Source of the DNA: Candidatus Iainarchaeum sp.
GTDB lineage: Archaea > Iainarchaeota > Iainarchaeia > Iainarchaeales > GCA-2688035
DNA length: 40,241 bases
NCBI GenBank assembly: GCA_016932355.1
Contig: JAFGDB010000062.1
Location: forward strand, 1 to 40,241
Direction of reading: 5' to 3'
The notes under the pieces were generated by a model that was not told the origin of the DNA, searched no databases, and was given only the letters and a program-made list of their open reading frames with translations. A program made the position numbers and the translations under genes. Within the stretch, counting starts at the first letter, position 1. Every line of letters begins with the position of its first letter. Of this stretch, positions 20,565 through 31,123 are shown piece after piece.

Positions 20565-20969
20565 TTAAAGGCTCTTGCCTATGAGTTCTTTCAGGCTCTT
20601 TGGGGCATCCACCCCTTTTGCCATAAACTCTTCCTTTGAAAACCACTTCATCTGGGCAATGCGCTCGTTCTCCTTGTGCGGCAAAACAGGCTTTTGTGTT
20701 CCGGCATCGCACCTGAAAACCGTGTTCACAACCATTGCGCCATCGCTCAAGCGCATAAAATAGTATACGCCAACAGCCTCCAGGGCTTCAACTTTGAGCC
20801 CTGCTTCCTCCCAGGCTTCCCTTTTCAGGGCTTCAATGGGGTCTTCACCGTGCTCAACCTTGCCGCCAGGCAAATCCCAGATTTTTTTCCTTCCAACCTC
20901 TAGCTCAAGGGCAAGGAACCTGCCTTCCCTTACAATAAGGGCCTTTATTGCAGCAAATACATCAGGCAT
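20565..20969 (-). CDS. NUDIX hydrolase
   Basis: The Nudix box GGKVEHGEDPIEALKREAWEEAGL is present. Confidence 0.8.
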   Translation of the reverse strand: MPDVFAAIKALIVREGRFLALELEVGRKKIWDLPGGKVEHGEDPIEALKREAWEEAGLKVEALEAVGVYYFMRLSDGAMVVNTVFRCDAGTQKPVLPHKENERIAQMKWFSKEEFMAKGVDAPKSLKELIGKSL

Positions 20970-22561: not shown

Positions 22562-22609
22562 ACAGCCCCAAAAAGGCAAAAGCTAATTGAATTCTGTAAA
22601 ATCCAAAAA

Positions 22610-22625
22610 AGCCCCGGGAGGGATT
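22610..22625. repeat. distal att-like repeat agccccgggagggatt
   Basis: 15 of 16 nt are identical to 31052-31067, which is the 3-prime end of tRNA-Thr read on the + strand. Confidence 0.6.
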
Positions 22626-22773
22626 ACCGCTCCAAATCAGAAGCCCGCCTGCATTGGCCGGCTGAAATTTTTATACAGAAACTATATAATGCGAGGGAGT
22701 TAATTAATTTATCGTCTGACATTCGTTTAACAAATAGGCTTAAATTTGTTTTAATAGATTAAATTTAGGTTGG

Positions 22774-24573
22774 ATGACTCGTTGTACACGTTGTGGAGAG
22801 AAGATAAAAGACCTGCCATTTCACTGTCACTATTGTAATTGCTTTTTTTGCAAGGAACATAGACTGCCAGAAAACCATAACTGCGATGCACATAGAGAGT
22901 ATAGTGAAGTTCGGCGAAGACGTTTTATTGAAATAGTTAAAAGTTATGTTACCTCTTTCATGCCAGTTGAAGAAAGTTTAAAAGGGGAGTCAGGAGCAAA
23001 AGTTAAGGGGGTTCCGCATACTGTATTTGAGAATGGCGAACTTAAAACAAAGACTAAAGTGAAAACTGTAGGCGAGCGAGCTCCCAAAAGCAGTAATTCT
23101 TACAAAAGTAAGCCTGCCATAAAATTCCGTTTCAATAAATTTAGGCTAAACAAGTCGATTGTTAAGTTTCTTGTTTTAGGGGGCGTTTTGTTTTCTATAA
23201 TTCTGTTGGTTACATATTTTCTTAATGTAAATTCTGTGGTCAGATTGGAGAATGTTAGGGCCAATGCTTACAAGTTAGCTAGTTCTAGCCCTCTAAAATT
23301 AGCGGTGAGAATAGATTACGAACTAGTTGATAATGCTACGGCAGTATACTTACAAACAGGCATTGAGCGAAAAACAAAAGAGTTGAAATGTAAATCTGCA
23401 GGCAAGTGTTCTGAAAGGATAAGTTTGCCAATCTCCGGTTTTTCATTAGTAGATGAGAACGCAGCGGAACCCACTTATGTTACCGAAAAACAAAAATACC
23501 TTCTTTGCGCGGAGTTTGAGAATCCCCTTATATTAAAGCAATGCAAGCAAATCATCTTGGAACCCTTTAATTTTAAAACTTCAGCAGCGGTTTCTATCGA
23601 TGCAAAAAACTTTACGTGTCCACAGGATTATCGTGAAGAAGGTGGTTTATGTTTAAAAATAAAACGTTGTGAAGATGGGACGGAATATGGGAAATGTAGT
23701 AATGAAAAACCCATATATTGCGAGGATGGTAACTTAGTTTCAAAAGCTAGTGTTTGTGGTTGTGGGGTCGATGAAGAAGTCGAAGAGGAAGAATGTGTTT
23801 CGATTTTTTTGAACGGGTCTGAAGAAAAAGAATTTGAGTATGTATTGCGTGGCGAAAGAGGAAAAATTTTGTTTACAACATACAAAGGATTGAATGACTA
23901 TTTAGCTGGTCAGCCAAGAACATACTATTGTGATCCTACTTGCCCCTCTGACACCGATATAGAGCTAAAATATCTTTCGGAGGAGCACCAAACGAAGGAG
24001 TTGAATAAACTTGTTCAGCTAATGCGTGAGGAAGCAGATAGTAAGGATGACCAAGCAAGAGTTGCTATAAGTTTAGTCCAGAAGATACCTTATGATTGGA
24101 TTGGTTTTGAAACAGGATTTTTATCTGGGAGATACCCTTATGAAGTTCTGTATGATAAAGCAGGGGTTTGTGGCGAAAAATCAAAACTCTTGGCCTACCT
24201 ATTAAAATCGCTTGGGTATGGCGTGGTGCTTTTTCAATATGATGAGGAATCCCATCAAGCAGTGGGGGTAAAATGCCCCCTCGAATATAGCTTAAATCAG
24301 GGGGGTTATTGTTTTATTGAAACCGCCAGGCCAGATATTCCAACTAATTATAGTGGTGATTATGTGGGGGTAGGAAAATTGCCCGCAGTGCCATCAGAAA
24401 CAATAAAAGTTAGTGATGGCAGTTCATTTGATAGCATTGGAGAGGAATATAATGATGCATTAGAGTGGAATAGAATTGATGCAATTGCTGAGAAATCGGG
24501 TAACGTTTTGCTCCCGGTTTATTATAATTCTTGGAATAGGCTGGTGTACAAATACGGGATTGAATTTGATTGA
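22774..24573 (+). CDS. AN1-type zinc finger / TM / Cys-rich ectodomain / transglutaminase-like core protein
   Basis: The N-terminal CTRCGEKIKDLPFHCHYCNCFFCKEHRLPENHNC fits the AN1 pattern C-X2-C-X10-C-X2-C-X4-C-X2-H-X5-H-X-C exactly. A TM follows (FLVLGGVLFSIILLVTYFL). The C-terminal GVCGEKSKLLAYLL...SHQAVGV...CFIETA resembles a Cys-His-acid transglutaminase-like core. Confidence 0.55.
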   Translation: MTRCTRCGEKIKDLPFHCHYCNCFFCKEHRLPENHNCDAHREYSEVRRRRFIEIVKSYVTSFMPVEESLKGESGAKVKGVPHTVFENGELKTKTKVKTVGERAPKSSNSYKSKPAIKFRFNKFRLNKSIVKFLVLGGVLFSIILLVTYFLNVNSVVRLENVRANAYKLASSSPLKLAVRIDYELVDNATAVYLQTGIERKTKELKCKSAGKCSERISLPISGFSLVDENAAEPTYVTEKQKYLLCAEFENPLILKQCKQIILEPFNFKTSAAVSIDAKNFTCPQDYREEGGLCLKIKRCEDGTEYGKCSNEKPIYCEDGNLVSKASVCGCGVDEEVEEEECVSIFLNGSEEKEFEYVLRGERGKILFTTYKGLNDYLAGQPRTYYCDPTCPSDTDIELKYLSEEHQTKELNKLVQLMREEADSKDDQARVAISLVQKIPYDWIGFETGFLSGRYPYEVLYDKAGVCGEKSKLLAYLLKSLGYGVVLFQYDEESHQAVGVKCPLEYSLNQGGYCFIETARPDIPTNYSGDYVGVGKLPAVPSETIKVSDGSSFDSIGEEYNDALEWNRIDAIAEKSGNVLLPVYYNSWNRLVYKYGIEFD

Positions 24574-24577
24574 AAAT

Positions 24578-25069
24578 TCAATTTTTTTTGTGATGATGAT
24601 AAACTGTAGCAGCCCCAATTATTCCTATTAAGATAGAACCAATTCCAATTGAAAATCCCGCTTGAGCCACTTGCGATGCAAATTCTTGCACTGCTAAGAA
24701 ATTTAGGAATACAAAAACAAGCGATAAAATGCCTGCAATGGCTTCTGGGGTCCTGCCTAATGCGTTTATTCCTCTGAGGAAATAAAGAACAACGGACACA
24801 AAATAAGTTATGATTAAAGCAAAAAATACCAGCAGAGATATTTTGTATTCACCAGAGTTTAAGTTAACAGCAATCATACCCCCTGTATTGTTTTGCTCTT
24901 TTTCGTTTTCTTCAACACTTATATAAATACCTTTGATGAGTTGATAAGGGGTAAGACTGTTTTCAGAGAAATCAAATAAGTTTTGAGAAACAATTGGAAG
25001 AAACATCGAAAATAGTAAAAGGAAAAAAGCGAATAAACCGCCCCCATTGACTCTGAAGTAGTATTTCAT
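24578..25069 (-). CDS. polytopic membrane protein (about 4 TM)
   Basis: 163 aa with four long hydrophobic segments. It is the last gene of the minus-strand island operon. Confidence 0.5.
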   Translation of the reverse strand: MKYYFRVNGGGLFAFFLLLFSMFLPIVSQNLFDFSENSLTPYQLIKGIYISVEENEKEQNNTGGMIAVNLNSGEYKISLLVFFALIITYFVSVVLYFLRGINALGRTPEAIAGILSLVFVFLNFLAVQEFASQVAQAGFSIGIGSILIGIIGAATVYHHHKKN

Positions 25070-25106
25070 AATAATATCCTGTACTTGAAAGAATATTTTA
25101 ATCTAT

Positions 25107-26342
25107 TCAAATCCCTCTTTTCCCAAGTATTTTGTCTATCTCTATTGGTGTGTATTTGATTAATTCCACGCTCACATTAATTGTCTTGTTCTCTGAATTT
25201 ATTAAAGGAAACTCTGTCGGATGGTTGTTATGGTGGTGTCCGTGTATTATCCATCCCTTCCAGCCCTTAGGTTTTAGTGCTGGATCATGCGTTAAAATAA
25301 ATTCTTCGTCCTTGTATTTCAAGAAAACGTTTTTGTCTTTTGAATAAAATGTTTTCAACTTAATGTCTTCGTGATTTCCTTCGATGAAAACAATTTTTCC
25401 GTTTAGTTTTTTCAGCCAGTATTCTGCGCTGTGGCTTCCTTTTCCAAAAGCCATGTCGCCTAAAAAGTAGACAGTGTCTTGGTTTCTCACTGTGTTGTTC
25501 CAGTTGCTTACAAGTATGTCGTTCATTTCTTTAACGTTTTTGAATGGCCTCTTTGTGTATTTTATGATGTTTGTGTGGTCTAAATGCAGGTCGCTTATTA
25601 GGAATATTTTCTTGCTAGTAGATGGCGTTTCTGCCAAGTGAATCTCCAATCTTTTCCCGCCGTTTGCTTTTATTTCTTTCAAGGCGCTTATTGTTTTTTG
25701 CATGCTTCTTCTGCTTAAGGCTTCATACCTGTGAAGCATCTCTCTTTGGATGAAATCATATTCTCTCAATATTTTGCCTTTCTTCAACAAGGTGGCTCTT
25801 AAGAGGCACTGGTCTATGTTGGGAATCTCAAGGCTTGAAACATAGCGCCAAATCTCGTCAAATTTTTCTTCAATGTCTCCATGGGCGATTGTAGTATGGA
25901 AGATAAAATCTAATTCAGGCATATCCCAAGGCTGCGCTTTGCAAGTAGTGTTCAATTCTTTTGCCAACTCACTTCGGAGTCCAATCAATTCTGTAGACGG
26001 CTTGACATTCAAATAGATAACATGTTTGTCTATGTGATCAAACCCGTTGAGCTTAAACTTAACTAAGTCAAATCTCTTGCAGATGCTTACAAACTTTTTT
26101 ATCATCTCATTTTCATCGGCTGTTGAAAAGCCACCATACAAGCTGATGTGCAGCGGCTTTCCTTTGCGTATCACTTGCTTTACTTGGAACTTGCGAGAAA
26201 TGTTTTTGGAAAGCTCTTTCGCATATCTTTTGGCATAGCCATGAAACCTAAATTCAATCAGGTAGTTTGCACACTTCTTTTTTGATTTAAGTCGTTTCTC
26301 TTTTTGTTTAAGCAAAGAACTCAATTTTTTTAATGTTATCAC
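25107..26342 (-). CDS. fusion of a 2H phosphoesterase (LigT/CPDase-like) and a calcineurin-like metallophosphoesterase
   Basis: The N-terminal half has two H-x-S/T motifs (PLHISLYG and FHTTIAHG). The C-terminal half has ISDLHLDH, FLGDMAFG, IEGNHED, LTHDP and IHGHHH. The GTG start overlaps the upstream stop (GTGA). Confidence 0.65.
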   Translation of the reverse strand: MITLKKLSSLLKQKEKRLKSKKKCANYLIEFRFHGYAKRYAKELSKNISRKFQVKQVIRKGKPLHISLYGGFSTADENEMIKKFVSICKRFDLVKFKLNGFDHIDKHVIYLNVKPSTELIGLRSELAKELNTTCKAQPWDMPELDFIFHTTIAHGDIEEKFDEIWRYVSSLEIPNIDQCLLRATLLKKGKILREYDFIQREMLHRYEALSRRSMQKTISALKEIKANGGKRLEIHLAETPSTSKKIFLISDLHLDHTNIIKYTKRPFKNVKEMNDILVSNWNNTVRNQDTVYFLGDMAFGKGSHSAEYWLKKLNGKIVFIEGNHEDIKLKTFYSKDKNVFLKYKDEEFILTHDPALKPKGWKGWIIHGHHHNNHPTEFPLINSENKTINVSVELIKYTPIEIDKILGKRGI

Positions 26343-26650
26343 CGAAACCGCTTCCTTCGTCTATGTTTTCTCTTCCTTTTTTTCTTAACTGGCACATACT
26401 CCCCATAAAAGATTGGGGCAAATTCATCTCTCCAAGCTTCATAACCACTGTAGATCCACAACCAGAATTTAACAGGCTTCCCACCCACATATGGTTTTAT
26501 GTCAGCTCGGCTGCAGGTTCTATTCTCATATTTTTTATAGCAAGGTATAGGGCCATCAAATCCAACGCAACCAAATAAGTCAACAATCTTTGTACTTCCT
26601 TTCTTCCCAAATAAATGTTTAATCCAATCCAGAGGAGTCAATTTAATCAC
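26339..26650 (-). CDS. hypothetical small protein with a highly basic C-terminal tail (KKKRKRKHRRRKRFR)
   Basis: 103-aa ORF that overlaps both neighbours, consistent with an operon. Confidence 0.45.
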   Translation of the reverse strand: MIKLTPLDWIKHLFGKKGSTKIVDLFGCVGFDGPIPCYKKYENRTCSRADIKPYVGGKPVKFWLWIYSGYEAWRDEFAPIFYGEYVPVKKKRKRKHRRRKRFR

Positions 26651-26903
26651 CCGGTTTATATTTTACATAGAAAAAGATTATAGCAGCAGCTATTCTAAGA
26701 ATTATGTCAACTGCGTCTGGAAAAGGTAAAGCAACCCTCACCATCAGCATAATAAGAGAGGTAAAAGTGCCAGTGAAGGCTTCTGTAGTCATTCCTGACG
26801 CCATGAACCCGAGAACGGGCAACATCATTTCTATAAAGATTCGCCCAACTACAAATGAAGAACCAAGTGCATAGGCAGCCACTATATCCTCTTTCCAACC
26901 CAT
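26643..26903 (-). CDS. small membrane protein
   Basis: 86 aa with 2-3 hydrophobic segments and an ATG start. A TATA-like aataatttaaaata lies upstream on the minus strand. Confidence 0.45.
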   Translation of the reverse strand: MGWKEDIVAAYALGSSFVVGRIFIEMMLPVLGFMASGMTTEAFTGTFTSLIMLMVRVALPFPDAVDIILRIAAAIIFFYVKYKPGD

Positions 26904-27340
26904 ATCCTAATCGGCTGCATTTCTTATTTTAAATTATTATTTTTGAGTTTTGCAGCGCCATATTTTTTCAAAAGCCCCCCAGCAATTCCCTGGAAAGACT
27001 CATTGCTGAAAACCTTATCCACAAGTCAAATCTGCCCCCTGTAATTGAACTAAATGTAGCAGTCCATTGCATCCTTCTTCTCGTGCCTTGCCTGTGTAGC
27101 CGCAAATCACTTTTTCTGGCTTAATCTGACTCAAATTACAAAAAGAAGCCCAGTTGACCTAAATATTTAGGTAGCGGAGGTAGCGGAATACCTCAGTTGG
27201 GCAAAAGGAGCGAGAATTGAGTACTAGTTGCTCCTACAAAGTATTGATTTTTGTAATGCAGTTTAGGAATACTATTAGTGCGTTGTGTACGTGAACATTA
27301 GCGTTTTGATTTAAATTTTTTGTTTTCTATTTGCCTGTTT

Positions 27341-28027
27341 TTATTTGAATAAGAATGAGAACAATGTTCCAAGTTTATTATTTATCATCATTTCAATTTC
27401 TTTTGCTACTTGGATGTAATTACTGTTTTTTAATCCAAAATAATCTGTAGTGACGAATTTTGTTTCTTCCTTTTTGTTGGTCAAAGCGGTTCGAATCCAG
27501 TGTTCATTGTCCGGGTGATGAATTACTTTGCCGTATTTTTGGTTTATTTGCTTGCAGCCTTCTTCAATTACTTCAATGCATTGGTTCACTTGCGAATCTG
27601 GAAGTTGATCTTTCATAAAATAAGTTCTAGCAATGAGCGCAAAATCTCCTTTTATTTCAGAGAGTTTCTTGTTTATATTTGTAGCGAATGATTCTCGTTT
27701 TTTCAAATCGGTGTCAATATCCTGGACACTTAAATCTAATAGTTTGAGCCCTTTCTTAAGTTGGTTTTTATCTATGAAGTTTGTTTCAGGCAGTAAGCTT
27801 ATGGCTTTGTCTAAGCTCTTTTTTGAATTTAAATAAAGAAGCATTGCTTCGATAGTGGTATGAAAAGTGTCAACAAGATCATAGAACTCGTGTTTAACTG
27901 AGGACACTAAAACGCTTTTTGCCTGTTTGAAGTCATTTTCAATTAGGAGGGTGCTCTTAATTCTTTCAGTTTCTTCTTTCCCCAGATAAGCGCTGATGAA
28001 TATGTTAGTATCGGGAGAGAGAATCAA
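27341..28027 (-). CDS. PIN-domain nuclease with a large helical insertion
   Basis: Four PIN acidic positions are recognisable: D6 (SPDTNIFI), E47 (VKHEF), D173 (HHPDNEHWIRTA) and D195 (FVTTDYFG). About 120 residues separate E47 from D173. The TTG start is preceded by AGGTG. Confidence 0.55.
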   Translation of the reverse strand: MILSPDTNIFISAYLGKEETERIKSTLLIENDFKQAKSVLVSSVKHEFYDLVDTFHTTIEAMLLYLNSKKSLDKAISLLPETNFIDKNQLKKGLKLLDLSVQDIDTDLKKRESFATNINKKLSEIKGDFALIARTYFMKDQLPDSQVNQCIEVIEEGCKQINQKYGKVIHHPDNEHWIRTALTNKKEETKFVTTDYFGLKNSNYIQVAKEIEMMINNKLGTLFSFLFK

Positions 28028-28038
28028 GTGAACACCTG

Positions 28039-28773
28039 CTATACTTTTATCGCATTGGCAATGTATTCGTTGTACCTGTCAAATTTGTGTTTGGGTTCTA
28101 GTATGCCGGCTTTGGCAAATTCTTCGTAGGCCTGTGTAATTTCTTTTTTTATTTTGTCTTTATCGAATAGTTTAACTAGTCTTATCACAAGAATGTTCGT
28201 TGCCGCAATTGTTCTAGCGAATTTCCTGAAATTGTGGGTTCTTTTCCCGAATGCGAAATATTTCAGACCTGGAATGGGGGCAAGTATTTTCCAATGGTTT
28301 TTCTGCGCTTTTATTACTTCTTTTCTGAACTCGCCTAAAAGCGTTTTTTGTATTCTTATGACTGTGGGGAAGTAAGATTTTTTTAACAAGTCTTTTTCAT
28401 CTGCGATAGCTTTCTCCATCGCTTGTTCGTCAGATATTATCTTCAAAGAGGTGTTAATAAACTCTGAAATTTTGACCAACAGTTGGTCTTGCTTATTAAC
28501 CATAAGCTGAACCACTTTCAAGAGTTCTTTCATATGTAGCTTATTCACTTTCGTTGTGGCCGCCAAATAATCTTCTATTGTAATGTACTCTTTGCCTGTA
28601 AGGTTTTCTAACTCCTTGACGACAAGCTCAGCATCATTAATACAGAATTGAAAAAAATCTTCTAATGTGGGCTTGACTTCCTCTGTTTTTTGAATGCTTA
28701 TGTATTTATCATAAGCCTCATCAATTAGAGGGTTATGGAAATTTAGATACCCCTGTTTAACATTAACGAACAT
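28039..28773 (-). CDS. hypothetical all-alpha protein, upstream partner of the PIN gene
   Basis: 244-aa ORF that ends 11 nt before the PIN gene start. A TATA-like atatttatatatat and a G-rich SD lie upstream on the minus strand. Confidence 0.5.
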   Translation of the reverse strand: MFVNVKQGYLNFHNPLIDEAYDKYISIQKTEEVKPTLEDFFQFCINDAELVVKELENLTGKEYITIEDYLAATTKVNKLHMKELLKVVQLMVNKQDQLLVKISEFINTSLKIISDEQAMEKAIADEKDLLKKSYFPTVIRIQKTLLGEFRKEVIKAQKNHWKILAPIPGLKYFAFGKRTHNFRKFARTIAATNILVIRLVKLFDKDKIKKEITQAYEEFAKAGILEPKHKFDRYNEYIANAIKV

Positions 28774-28880
28774 GCTGCCCCCTTTGGTACTTTATTTATC
28801 CTATAGGCTGTAATGAAAGGGAAACGATATATATAAATATTTGGACGCCCCCCCAAATTATGTATACTGCAAGCTGTTTT

Positions 28881-29006
28881 CTATCGTCGAGACTCCAGCA
28901 AATCCCTTATCTCTACAAGCAAATTGTTCTGCTCCCTGAGCAGCCTGTTGTTTTCCGCTAGCAGGTTTTTGGTTTTGTTTTGCTGGATGAATGTTGCTAT
29001 GCCCAT
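28881..29006 (-). CDS. 41-aa leucine-zipper-like micro-protein (MGIATFIQQNKTKNLLAENNRLLREQNNLLVEIRDLLESRR)
   Basis: It is below the ORF-track cutoff. Its ATG lies 1 nt after the integrase TGA, and GGAGGTG within the last integrase codons sits 7 nt upstream. Confidence 0.35.
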   Translation of the reverse strand: MGIATFIQQNKTKNLLAENNRLLREQNNLLVEIRDLLESRR

Positions 29007-29007
29007 T

Positions 29008-30204
29008 TCACACACCTCCCGGAAGACCTTGCTGCAGGATTGTTAAAGCCTGCCTTATTTTCTGCGGGTTGTTGCCAGCCAGCTCCAGCAATTTCATCAG
29101 GCTTATGACGCTTTCCTGGCTGTTTTCCTCTGTTTCACGCATCTCCCTTGAAGCTTGCGGTGATAATGGAAGCCAGCATTTTTCGCAATAATCATTGTTG
29201 ACATCGTTCAATTGCTTGCATCTTGGGCATGGCTCTCTCTTCAGCAAATCCTTTTGCTCTTCCCCCTTCTTCAAGCCGCACATTCTTAGCACAGCATCAT
29301 CTACTTGTTTTCCTGAGAGGTGAACATAGCGTGCTGCCATTTTGCTGTCCTGGCCCCAGCCAAAGTATTCTTTCATTTGGGCGTCTGTAAGGAACTGGGC
29401 CATGTATGTTGCCCTGCTGTGCCTGAAGTGGTGTGGGTTGATTGGCTTTTGCAAGCTGGCTCTTTTTTTGGCTGTGCGCAGGACCTTGGATATTGCAGAG
29501 TAGCCCATTTGTTCGCAGTGGCTTTTTTCCAAGCAAATCCATAGTGGCGCATCAATGTTTTTGCTGTATGGATGCTTGTTAATCCACTCCAGCACGTAGG
29601 GCGCGCTGTGGACGATCCTGACTTTTCTCATGCCGGTTTTTCCGTCTAGGAGAATCCTGCCGCCGAATTCGTCGAAAGAAATGTCTCTGATTCTTGCGCT
29701 GCCGAGCTCGCCGATTCTCGCGCCTGTTTCCCAAAGGGAAGCAATGAGCGCTTTGTCCCTCTGGTTCAAAGCAGATTTAATTAACTGCTTTGCATCTTCC
29801 TGGGTTAGCAGTTGCTCTGGCAGGGTTTGGTTGCCGATTTTTTTGAACTTGAACCAGGCAACACATTCTGGGTATGTTCCGTTGTTGAGCCACTTGTGAA
29901 AAACCTTCAGGATTTTTTTGTAAGTCCAGATAGTGGCTTCCTTGCAACCCTGCTTGTGCAGCCAAATCAAGAACTGTTCATAGTCCTCTTTTGAAGCCTC
30001 TCTGAAGTCTTTTTTCACCTGCCCTGCTGTTCTCCTTAGCACGCACATTTGTCTTATCAATCTCGCAAGGCTGAACCCTTGTGCCAAATTGTGCTCATAG
30101 AAGCTTGTTATCAGTTGCTTGTTTGCTTCAGCTAGGGAAGAATTTTCCAACCGCTTGATTTCCCCTTCAAGGTCTCTCTCGAAAGGGTGAATGTATTTTC
30201 TCAT
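29008..30204 (-). CDS. tyrosine recombinase/integrase with a C-terminal zinc ribbon
   Basis: Catalytic signature residues are present: ETGARIGEL (Arg), HHFRHSRAT (H-x-x-R) and AARYVHL (Tyr). The tail carries CPRCKQ...CEKC. A TATA-like atttaaat and GGTGAGGT lie upstream. Confidence 0.85.
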   Translation of the reverse strand: MRKYIHPFERDLEGEIKRLENSSLAEANKQLITSFYEHNLAQGFSLARLIRQMCVLRRTAGQVKKDFREASKEDYEQFLIWLHKQGCKEATIWTYKKILKVFHKWLNNGTYPECVAWFKFKKIGNQTLPEQLLTQEDAKQLIKSALNQRDKALIASLWETGARIGELGSARIRDISFDEFGGRILLDGKTGMRKVRIVHSAPYVLEWINKHPYSKNIDAPLWICLEKSHCEQMGYSAISKVLRTAKKRASLQKPINPHHFRHSRATYMAQFLTDAQMKEYFGWGQDSKMAARYVHLSGKQVDDAVLRMCGLKKGEEQKDLLKREPCPRCKQLNDVNNDYCEKCWLPLSPQASREMRETEENSQESVISLMKLLELAGNNPQKIRQALTILQQGLPGGV

Positions 30205-30271
30205 TTAACCTCACCTTCCTCAACCGAAACCAATTTAAATGACACAGGTGAGGGCTCTTGAAAAGAAGCTA

Positions 30272-30297
30272 ATAGCCCCGGGAGGGAATTGAACTCT
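30272..30297. repeat. internal att-like repeat (partial tRNA 3-prime end) atagccccgggagggaattgaactct
   Basis: 23 of 26 nt are identical to 31050-31075. It lacks the 5-prime half of a tRNA, so it is not a gene. Confidence 0.6.
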
Positions 30298-30426
30298 GTT
30301 TTTTTGGCTGGGTTAGAAGCTGGCCCACCTGGCAAGCTCTTGCATTGGCAATTAGCGGTTAACAAAAGCGGAAAGCATTAAAAACACTTAGGTAATAAGT
30401 ATATTATAGGCAATAAATTTATGTAG

Positions 30427-30705
30427 GTGGTTTTTTTGGCTACAGAAACTATCCAGGTTTTGCACTACCCAACGCTTAAAACTGTTCTCATGGTTGAAAA
30501 CATACTAAAGGAAGCAAAAGAGCCTCTTTCAAGATATGAAATAATGAAAAGGTCAGACAACAAAGTAATGAGGCAAACACTGAACACTATACTTGCATAC
30601 CTTGAAAAGAGGGGCATGGTACTGGACAGCGAGAAAGGCGTTATCTGGACTTACACGCCGCCATCAAAGATGAAGAAATGGTTGAGAGAGAGCGTCGAAG
30701 TATGA
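30427..30705 (+). CDS. winged-helix DNA-binding protein, putative antitoxin/regulator
   Basis: 92 aa with a GTG start; an alternative ATG lies at 30490. It shows a wHTH-like pattern (LSRYEIMKRSDNKVMRQTLNTILAYLEKRGMV). Its stop overlaps the next ATG (ATGA at 30702-30705). Confidence 0.45.
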   Translation: MVFLATETIQVLHYPTLKTVLMVENILKEAKEPLSRYEIMKRSDNKVMRQTLNTILAYLEKRGMVLDSEKGVIWTYTPPSKMKKWLRESVEV

Positions 30706-31049
30706 AAGCAAGAGTCAGGATTATAGGGCAAGCGCTTGAAGAATACAACAAACTCAAGGAAGCCGTCAAGGAAGAGGGAAAAAGAGGCATTAAAAGCAGC
30801 GAAAATGTCACACTGCTTAAGAGCATAGACCAAAAGGTTGAGTGGCTGAAAGAAAACCCTTTGGTTGGCGAGGTTGTGAAAAAGAAAGACATCCCAAAAG
30901 AACTTGACGTAGACAACCTCTTCAAGCTAAGGCTTGCACGCTACTGGAGAATGCTTTACACAATCAGGCGGCAAGAAATAGAAATATTCTGCTTTGTCCT
31001 AACAATAGAGCCGCACTCAGATTACGACAAAAGATTCAAGAAAAAATAA
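30702..31049 (+). CDS. RelE/ParE-superfamily toxin-like protein
   Basis: WLKENPLVGE...LFKLRLARYWRMLYTIRRQEIEIFCFVLTIEPHSDY fits the RelE/ParE core pattern (R-x-R-x-x-x-Y/W-R-x-x-Y ... h-x-h-x-x-H). An alternative start lies at 30678. Confidence 0.5.
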   Translation: MKARVRIIGQALEEYNKLKEAVKEEGKRGIKSSENVTLLKSIDQKVEWLKENPLVGEVVKKKDIPKELDVDNLFKLRLARYWRMLYTIRRQEIEIFCFVLTIEPHSDYDKRFKKK

Positions 31050-31051
31050 AT

Positions 31052-31123
31052 AGCCCCGGGAGAGATTCGAACTCTCGACCTGCGGTTTACGAAACCGCTG
31101 CTCTACCGCTGAGCCACCGGGGC
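31052..31123 (-). tRNA. tRNA-Thr (anticodon CGU)
   Basis: The reverse complement folds as a cloverleaf. Stems: acceptor GCCCCGG/CCGGGGC, D stem GCTC/GAGC, anticodon stem GCGGT/ACCGC with loop TTCGTAA, T stem GAGAG/CTCTC with loop TTCGAAT. No CCA is encoded. Confidence 0.85.

Follow-up and report, generated by a model that had tools for sequence, protein, structure and literature searches.

Several combinations of domains are known among the enzymes that heal ends with a 2',3'-cyclic phosphate: Pnkp, from T4 and from Clostridium thermocellum, Trl1, ThpR and CNPase. We describe here a gene found in a 40,241-nucleotide (nt) stretch of DNA from Candidatus Iainarchaeum sp. (assembly GCA_016932355.1, contig JAFGDB010000062.1, positions 1-40,241, forward strand), hereafter called the window, which joins a 2H phosphoesterase domain to a small calcineurin-like metallophosphoesterase (MPE) and lies on an integrated element, called the island below. 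Among end-healing and cyclic-phosphate enzymes, this pairing of a 2H cyclic phosphodiesterase (CPDase) with an MPE of the COG4186 type is a new variant architecture, uncharacterised in the searchable literature.

2H enzymes such as ThpR open the 2',3'-cyclic phosphate of RNA to a 2'-monoester (PMC4201822), and 'linear' phosphatases (HAD, calcineurin-like or HD) then remove the monoester (PMC7824862, PMC9503650). The binuclear MPE of C. thermocellum Pnkp performs both the diesterase and the monoesterase steps (PMC2190708).

A fusion of a 2H phosphoesterase and a phage-type metallophosphoesterase

The gene and its two domains are located as follows (aa, amino acids):

25107-26342 (-): 2H-MPE fusion gene, 411 aa from a GTG at 26342
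25653-26270 (-): 2H phosphoesterase domain, about residues 25-230, motifs H65-I-S and H149-T-T
25110-25646 (-): binuclear MPE domain of the COG4186/phrog_547 type, about residues 233-411

The public gene call is 405 aa long, which implies a start at an in-frame TTG six codons downstream. An original prediction, made from the letters of the window and their open reading frames (ORFs), had proposed the fusion on the basis of two H-x-S/T motifs and a full set of metal ligands, and each motif that it quoted is present in the 411-aa ORF: HISL (H65) and HTTI (H149) in the first half, DLHLDH (251-256), GD (295-296), GNHE (322-325) and GHHH (368-371) in the second. The MPE motifs can thus be written D251xH253, G295-D296, G322-N-H324, H352 and G368-H-x-H371.

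Profile searches and structure prediction, run on each half, bear the fusion out. The 2H half matches Pfam PF13563 (2'-5' RNA ligase/2H superfamily) with an E-value (E) of 1.5e-15 and 58 bits, for a cutoff of 27 bits. The C-terminal half matches the generic Pfam model Metallophos_2 weakly (E 8e-4) and the PHROGs family phrog_547, 'phosphoesterase', at E 1.4e-44, residues 233-406 aligning to profile positions 18-196 of 245. No domain other than these two was detected with Pfam and NCBIfam. An AlphaFold2 model of the protein, based on 117 homologs, has high confidence over its whole length (pLDDT 93.9, pTM 0.88). Searched with Foldseek, its N-terminal half matches YjcG, CPDase, AKAP18, Usb1 and LigT with a probability of 1.00, ASCC1 being matched as well, while the best match of its C-terminal half in the PDB is 1XM7, the Aquifex protein AQ665 (E 1.7e-8, TM-score of 0.66 normalised to the target). 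Phage phosphoesterases in BFVD, one of which is named COG4186, are matched by the MPE half down to E 3e-11. The 2H fold and the metal ligands are thereby confirmed in their respective halves.

Conservation was read from alignments of 26 and 117 family members. In the 2H half, none of the 117 sequences departs from H65, H149 or R182, and at least 90% of them have T151; in the MPE half, D251, H253, G295/D296, H324, H352 and G368/H371 are invariant in both alignments. Since the catalytic histidines and aspartates do not vary across the family, both active sites must be under selection, and we consider it confirmed that the 411-aa protein is a genuine fusion of a 2H cyclic phosphodiesterase with a small phage-type MPE.

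Comparison with described enzymes

On the 2H side, the best structural match is Bacillus subtilis YjcG (2d4g; TM-score 0.74, target-normalised, E 8e-7), and the Arabidopsis CPDase acting on ADP-ribose 1'',2''-cyclic phosphate (Appr>p) also scores well (1jh6/1fsi; TM-score 0.61, E 1e-5). Both, however, are single-domain proteins with 14-16% identity to the fusion, which reaches 18 bits with the YjcG model PRK13679, for a cutoff of 129 bits. ThpR/LigT shares the 2H fold and the two catalytic HxT/S motifs (Foldseek matches 5ldm, 4qak, 1vdx and 2fyh), and would be expected to convert a cyclic phosphate into a monoester in the same way. The fusion nevertheless falls below the ThpR/LigT model TIGR02258 (20.4 bits, cutoff 65.7 bits). 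The extended HxTxxF/HxTxxR motifs of ThpR (PMC4201822) are lacking in the fusion family, which has H-I-S/T-L-x-G and H-x-T-I-A-x in their place (HISLYG/HITLxG and HTTIAH/HATIAx), and ThpR itself is without a C-terminal MPE. Acb1 and the NS2/VP3 2',5'-phosphodiesterases have the same fold and are likewise carried by mobile or viral genomes, but their matches are low-ranked (E 1e-3 to 7e-3; Acb1 stands at rank 50 in BFVD, E 2.8e-3), and none of them is fused to an MPE.

On the MPE side, the C-terminal half is a clear member of the group formed by AQ665 (1XM7), COG4186 and phrog_547, whose proteins are standalone, of about 170-240 aa, none being fused or adjacent to a 2H domain. With the PdeM model (TIGR04123) the fusion obtains 31.9 bits for a cutoff of 150 bits, and no ligase or helicase partner recurs.

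As regards combined activities, C. thermocellum Pnkp (Pnkp-Hen1) has a binuclear MPE that takes an RNA 2',3'-cyclic phosphate to RNA-OH (PMC2190708, PMC3675462), which is the outcome proposed below for the fusion. The Pnkp MPE is, however, of the lambda-phosphatase type and does both steps alone, and neither the kinase and ligase domains of Pnkp nor its Hen1 partner are found in the fusion protein or its neighbours. The fungal and plant Trl1 (ligase-kinase-2H phosphodiesterase) and CNPase (PNK-like and 2H) likewise attach a 2H CPDase to another end-processing activity. In these proteins the fused partner is a kinase or a ligase and not a phosphatase, and the 2'-phosphate is kept for Tpt1 and not removed (PMC9503650).

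Size and distribution of the family

A word-indexed search of protein clusters (E<=1e-3) gave, among the matches listed, at least 445 clusters, nearly all of them full-length and 40-73% identical to the fusion protein. Some already carry the names '2'-5' RNA ligase family protein' or 'calcineurin-like phosphoesterase family protein/2'-5' RNA ligase' from NCBI or JGI. The original prediction had not recognised the fusion as a described system: we found no paper on it, but the family already exists in the databases, is large and is automatically annotated, by domain names only, with the window gene as one of its ordinary members.

Scanning one genome per GTDB species yielded 205 encoding stretches. 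Our locus analyses concern the best 80 of these 205, to which we added the loci of two relatives, 70% and 73% identical (82 loci in all). The hosts among the best 80 are DPANN archaea (Iainarchaeum, Micrarchaeota, Woesearchaeota, Aenigmarchaeota, Nanoarchaeota and Altiarchaeota), other archaea (Thaumarchaeota, Methanosarcinales, Methanoregula, Hadarchaeota and Hydrothermarchaeota) and bacteria (Dehalococcoidia/Chloroflexia and one metagenome-assembled genome of Poribacteria), a phyletic pattern that is patchy. The family is large (at least 205 species genomes) and horizontally mobile, and it occurs in groups (DPANN, Thaumarchaeota, methanogens, Dehalococcoidia) whose RNA-damage and repair biology is almost unexplored.

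The distribution of the MPE half alone is different. By tblastn it was found as a standalone gene in 1379 GenBank phage records, none of which (0 of 1379) covers at least 80% of the fusion, and in the contigs of IMG/VR only the MPE half was matched. Around 80 viral standalone MPE genes (L081-L160, from IMG/VR), a hidden Markov model specific for the family's 2H domain detected no 2H gene within +/-8 kb. A viral origin of the full fusion was rejected, because the IMG/VR and GenBank phage searches gave the MPE half only, without a 2H gene within 8 kb of the 80 viral genes scanned. Standalone phrog_547/COG4186 genes occur very widely in phages, among them those of Vibrio, Pseudomonas, Staphylococcus and Listeria, and HAD 'Swiss-army-knife' RNA-repair domains are occasionally encoded next to them. 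Characterising the fusion family would give the first functional handle on phrog_547/COG4186, present in more than 1000 phage genomes.

Carriage on an integrated element and horizontal mobility

In the window, the fusion gene is cargo of an integrated element of about 7.7 kb bounded by repeats of the 3' end of tRNA-Thr. The features that define it are listed below (att, attachment site; GC, guanine plus cytosine content):

29008-30204 (-): tyrosine recombinase (integrase) with a C-terminal zinc ribbon, PF00589 E 2e-19
31052-31123 (-): tRNA-Thr (CGU), probable integration target (ARAGORN; Rfam 71.5 bits)
22607-22633 (no strand): left att-like copy of the tRNA-Thr 3' end, at the GC transition, core AGCCCCGGGAGGGA
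30271-30297 (no strand): right att-like copy of that 3' end, 67 nt ahead of the start codon of the integrase gene

The mobile setting described by the original prediction is therefore confirmed, with an integrase close to an att copy, direct repeats of a tRNA 3' end (at 22607, 30271 and 31049) and a marked compositional contrast. The best NCBIfam match of the integrase, below its cutoff, is recomb_XerA_Arch. The left boundary is the weaker one, since the left copy is only 74% identical, with an exact core of 14 nt. Both att-like copies (30271-30329 and 22607-22660) run on into sequence that resembles a tRNA but departs from tRNA-Thr beyond about 27 nt, which suggests that successive integrations at one site have left degenerate or displaced tRNA 3' halves behind.

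Between 22.6 and 29 kb, GC goes down to 0.37, from about 0.47. The cargo (22634-29007) has a GC of 0.372, whereas the integrase (29008-30204), at 0.475, is host-like, so that the element is compositionally mosaic and the cargo probably derived from a donor of lower GC. The flanks encode lysine-biosynthesis enzymes and an aminoacyl-tRNA synthetase, and the surrounding sequence is therefore a cellular chromosome.

Mobility is not confined to this copy. Integrases homologous to that of the window lie near the fusion gene in six other loci (L001, L007, L011, L018, L058 and L071), and the layout of an integrase next to a tRNA recurs in L011, where no att repeat was found within the fetched range. 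Compared with its flanks in 67 loci, the fusion gene has a GC that is 5 points lower (median), 42 loci being more than 3 points below and 2 more than 3 points above (Wilcoxon p 1e-9). Third codon positions show the deficit as well (median -6 points, p 1.6e-4), which means that it does not stem from amino-acid composition. The closest relative, at 70% identity, is encoded on a 533-kb contig between a tRNA synthetase gene and purine-biosynthesis genes, in an islet with a GC of 0.39 within a genome of 0.53. Homologs without the flanking partners of the window gene thus do occur, some of them among housekeeping genes, but such copies still sit in low-GC foreign islets. The fusion family behaves as horizontally moving accessory cargo among archaea and Chloroflexi.

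A proposed two-step removal of cyclic phosphates

By analogy with the enzymes compared above, we propose, with a probability of about 0.4, that the 411-aa protein acts on its own as a bifunctional phosphoesterase, removing 2',3'-cyclic phosphates, as at RNA ends, in two steps. The 2H domain (His65, His149) would first hydrolyse the cyclic diester of an RNA 3' end, or of a 2',3'-cyclic nucleotide, to a 2'- or 3'-monophosphate, as the chemistry of 2H enzymes suggests. The binuclear MPE (D251, H253, D296, H324, H352, H369, H371) would then remove the monophosphate, leaving a 2',3'-diol. An enzyme performing both steps would have no need of a dedicated partner. A likely use would be the clean-up of products of metal-independent ribonucleases (toxins, HEPN/RelE-type RNases), after which the cleaned 3' ends could be extended, re-ligated by a 3'-OH-dependent ligase, or degraded. 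Substrate, order of the steps and biological role are what we infer here. With both sites conserved and no obligate partner, the self-contained two-step enzyme is the simplest reading. A context of conflict is also at hand, as a probable ParE/RelE-type toxin cassette abuts the island, and a homolog from it lies 1.5 kb from the fusion gene in L028.

The processing of cyclic phosphates is the natural reading of the chemistry, and the healing of RNA ends, one of the two roles put forward in the original prediction, would not take the form of a repair operon. In Pfam scans of 140 immediate (+/-1) and 116 second (+/-2) neighbours, we found no recurrent RNA ligase, RtcB, polynucleotide kinase, Tpt1 or macro domain, and an RNA-repair operon was rejected on this ground. 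The most frequent Pfam families at the +/-1 positions are MBL-fold (6, mostly from syntenic Dehalococcoidia loci), NUDIX (5), CAP (at least 4), AAA_14 (3), AbiEii (2) and zf-AN1 (2), none exceeding 6 of 140, and the list for the +/-2 positions is equally diffuse.

Several observations weigh against this proposal. Within the literature searchable, no paper was found on the 2H-MPE fusion or on the function of COG4186/AQ665. The window protein has the Asn of the GNH(D/E) motif, for which some homologs have S, Y or T. RtcB, the main archaeal RNA ligase, uses ends that carry a 3'-phosphate or a 2',3'-cyclic phosphate, and the production of a diol would therefore block the RtcB route rather than help it. 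The specificity of ThpR for RNA cyclic phosphates is not transferable to the fusion, because its 2H half has no HxTxxF/HxTxxR motifs and scores below the ThpR cutoff. An MPE can open cyclic phosphates by itself (PMC2190708), which would make the 2H domain redundant and hints that at least one of the halves has a different substrate. Lastly, the adjacency of NUDIX genes in five loci and the ADP-ribose-related neighbours of phage MPE genes point towards small-molecule substrates.

Alternative functions

If the substrate were a small molecule, the 2H domain would open Appr>p or free 2',3'-cyclic nucleoside monophosphates, the MPE would remove the phosphate, and an adjacent NUDIX hydrolase, where there is one, would split ADP-ribose. 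The protein would then be comparable to a cytoplasmic CpdB analogue, or would take part in a route from CPDase to phosphatase to NUDIX. In L011, L023 and L036, a NUDIX gene on the same strand is indeed coupled in translation to the fusion gene, through overlaps or gaps of 4 nt, and L044 and L053 have one close to it; together these nevertheless amount to only about 6% of loci. The window also has a NUDIX hydrolase gene (20565-20969, minus strand, E 1.6e-16), but it lies 1.6 kb outside the left boundary of the att-bounded island, and its proximity may be coincidental. Structurally, the Arabidopsis Appr>p CPDase is one of the best matches (1jh6, E 1e-5; 1fsi), although YjcG outranks it in the fold search. 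PARG, YAcAr/SLOG and DUF4326 are domains of the ADP-ribose network. All three occur among the 150 neighbours of standalone phage MPE genes that we inspected, yet with counts of just 1 or 2 (PARG 2, YAcAr/SLOG 2, DUF4326 1). Finally, a membrane protein resembling staphylococcal nuclease is encoded beside the fusion gene in L015, while no Tpt1/KptA or macro-domain partner occurs among the +/-1 and +/-2 neighbours. A small-molecule substrate appears possible but somewhat unlikely.

A separate question is whether the enzyme, whatever its substrate, works with a membrane partner. The features concerned are the following:

22774-24573 (+): 599-aa protein, zf-AN1 E 7e-6, Transglut_core E 9e-3
L024:7228-8859, L048:7304-8641, L016:4109-5998, L040:4351-5913, L045:4218-5945 and L009:4448-6007: AN1/polybasic-transmembrane-CAP or transglutaminase-like neighbours in homolog loci

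In the largest cluster of neighbours, which spans 13 loci, the members are membrane proteins in which a cytoplasmic head of the AN1-like or Zn-ribbon kind is followed by a strongly polybasic stretch, one transmembrane helix and an extracellular CAP domain. They are immediate neighbours of the fusion gene in about 9 of the 80 loci, which belong to Thaumarchaeota, Methanosarcinales, Hadarchaeota and Poribacteria, and they are the only recurrent cross-phylum neighbour. Strict AN1 motifs are found three times in the 861 kb of homolog loci, all three within 2.1 kb of the fusion gene and two within about 100 nt of it. In one family member, P0080, the enzyme is itself fused at its C-terminus to an AN1 finger and a transmembrane helix. 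The window has an AN1 gene too: its 599-aa product comprises an AN1 finger (residues 4-39), an RRRR stretch, a transmembrane helix (around residue 125), Cys-rich repeats and a transglutaminase-like core, and the gene is convergent with the operon of the fusion gene, the stop codons being 4 nt apart. Partial matches to this protein lie beside the fusion gene in L016, L024, L040, L044 and L048, and it fits as the window's version of the recurrent zinc-finger membrane neighbour.

Adjacency in about 9 of 80 loci, the clustering of AN1 motifs, the P0080 fusion and the AN1 gene of the window are the grounds for considering that the true partner of the enzyme might be an AN1/Zn-ribbon-polybasic-transmembrane protein with a CAP or transglutaminase-like domain, the two forming an undescribed membrane-tethered module across archaea and at least one bacterial phylum. 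We hold this to be unlikely. If true, the zinc finger and polybasic tail would dock or regulate the 2H-MPE enzyme at the inner face of the membrane, coupling for example an extracellular cue to the clearance of cyclic-phosphate RNA or nucleotides.

The other role put forward in the original prediction was the degradation of immune signals. An enzyme carried by a mobile element could destroy cyclic-oligonucleotide or 2'-5'-linked messengers, as do Acb1 and viral 2',5'-phosphodiesterases, the MPE finishing the linear products. Such a role would agree with the integrative element described here and the integrases near the gene in six other loci, with the foreign composition of the gene in about half of its hosts, and with the 1379 phage records that hold the family of the MPE half. 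However, the full fusion occurs in no phage record or IMG/VR contig, no 2H gene was found within 8 kb of the 80 viral standalone MPE genes, and many copies of the fusion lie on contigs of 0.5-3.3 Mb, which are cellular chromosomes. The fold does resemble those of AKAP18, the NS2/VP3 2',5'-phosphodiesterases, the poxvirus phosphodiesterase for cyclic GMP-AMP and Acb1, but the last two rank low (E 2e-3 to 3e-3), behind YjcG, CPDases and LigT. Some neighbours match the defence models PDC-S01 (3), LmuA (3) and AbiEii (2) of PADLOC. No island protein, the fusion protein included, was matched by PADLOC, and a known defence or anti-defence system was rejected for this reason. The Acb1-like proposal thus keeps a weak resemblance at the level of the fold, finds no virus with the full fusion, and strikes us as quite improbable.

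The small flanking genes

The fusion gene is accompanied by three small ORFs on the same strand:

26643-26903 (-): 86-aa membrane protein, first gene of the local operon, 2 hydrophobic segments
26339-26650 (-): 103-aa ORF with a polybasic C-terminal tail, overlapping both neighbouring genes; putative gene
24578-25069 (-): 163-aa protein with four transmembrane segments, 37 nt downstream of the fusion gene; orphan

The original prediction described four minus-strand genes chained by overlapping start and stop codons. The ORFs and their coordinates are correct, and the overlaps exist at all junctions but one: 8 nt are common to the 86-aa and 103-aa ORFs, and the stop codon of the latter shares a 4-nt GTGA overlap with the GTG start of the fusion gene. 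At the third junction, a spacer of 37 nt separates the fusion gene from the 163-aa gene, without overlap. That the 86-aa and 163-aa ORFs encode membrane proteins is likewise correct (about 2 hydrophobic transmembrane segments in the former, 4 in the latter), as is the basic tail of the 103-aa ORF, which ends in KKKRKRKHRRRKRFR. The ATG of the 86-aa gene is preceded, at about 25-45 nt, by an AT-rich, TATA-like box. Scanning for sigma-70 promoters and terminators gave counts equal to those of shuffled sequence.

The 86-aa and 163-aa ORFs are annotated singleton clusters, and an exhaustive HMMER scan of 1.84 billion representatives with the 163-aa protein returned only itself. For the 103-aa ORF, a search of 5.8 billion clusters gave no homolog, and none of three start variants is annotated in the public protein collection. 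By a rough estimate, the chance of an open frame of 103 codons at a GC of 38% is about 1e-3 per frame. Given this low figure, and the coupling of the 103-aa ORF at both of its ends, the small flanking ORFs are probably real local genes.

Do they form a system with the enzyme? The original prediction saw in the four genes a novel operon, and we surveyed the neighbourhoods of the homologs accordingly. By tblastn against 80 homolog loci, the 86-, 103- and 163-aa proteins, as well as the 228- and 244-aa proteins encoded further along the island, gave no match, and none of the five recurred in a de novo clustering of 1027 neighbour ORFs. The loci of the 70%- and 73%-identical relatives are also devoid of the 86-, 103- and 163-aa partners. 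A conserved four-gene operon was therefore rejected, as no partner recurs in the 82 homolog loci or among the clustered ORFs, and the three small ORFs are local, lineage-specific additions, outside any conserved machine.

Although the tight spacing of the four genes (8-nt and 4-nt overlaps, 37-nt spacer), the single upstream AT-rich promoter-like box, the C-terminal transmembrane anchor of P0080 and a weak family-wide enrichment of transmembrane proteins among immediate neighbours (35% versus 25%, odds ratio 1.6, p 0.014, position +/-4 being equally high) speak for one functional membrane-associated system made of the 86-aa transmembrane protein, the 103-aa basic protein, the fusion and the 163-aa transmembrane protein, such a system is highly improbable in view of the absence of the small partners from all 82 loci, close relatives included, of a 103-aa ORF that is without homologs and unannotated, and of a 163-aa protein that finds itself alone. 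What gives the locus its value is the enzyme family, together with the unexplained link of that family to AN1/CAP membrane proteins, and not a four-gene island system.

Other genes of the island and the window

Upstream of the operon, the island carries a second group of genes:

27341-28773 (-): two-gene module made of a 244-aa gene (28039-28773) and a 228-aa gene (27341-28027)

The 228-aa protein had been named a PIN nuclease, and its position next door was taken as a hint of ribotoxin damage. This attribution was not confirmed. The protein has no match in Pfam, NCBIfam, PADLOC, PHROGs or the sequences of the PDB, and its resemblance to PIN domains is at the level of motifs only (SPDTNIF..., ...VTTDYFG). 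A single homolog, 46% identical, was found, on contig L164 (module at L164:5199-6636). The residues D6, E47, D105/D107 and D195 are conserved between the two, which is compatible with a PIN domain and not diagnostic of it, and an AlphaFold model built from these 2 sequences was unusable (pLDDT 46.6). A homolog of the 244-aa protein (39% identity, E 9e-60) adjoins that of the 228-aa protein on L164, the only other copy of the module in the whole database. Because this sole homologous pair is adjacent on a contig without the fusion gene, we consider the 244-aa and 228-aa genes an independent module.

Between the 228-aa gene and the operon of the fusion gene lies a non-coding gap of 437 nt (26904-27340), which contains the short tandem motif ctccgctacctccgctacct and the AT-rich promoter-like box, and in which Rfam finds no match.

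Finally, two overlapping genes form a cassette between the right att copy and tRNA-Thr:

30436-30705 (+): 89-aa winged-helix protein, Penicillinase_R-like, E 8e-4
30678-31049 (+): 123-aa protein with weak ParE/RelE-toxin matches, E 0.005, below the cutoff

Probably this cassette encodes a toxin-antitoxin pair, or else it is what remains of an earlier integration. The homolog of the 123-aa protein in L028 is 45% identical to it and lies upstream of the fusion gene.

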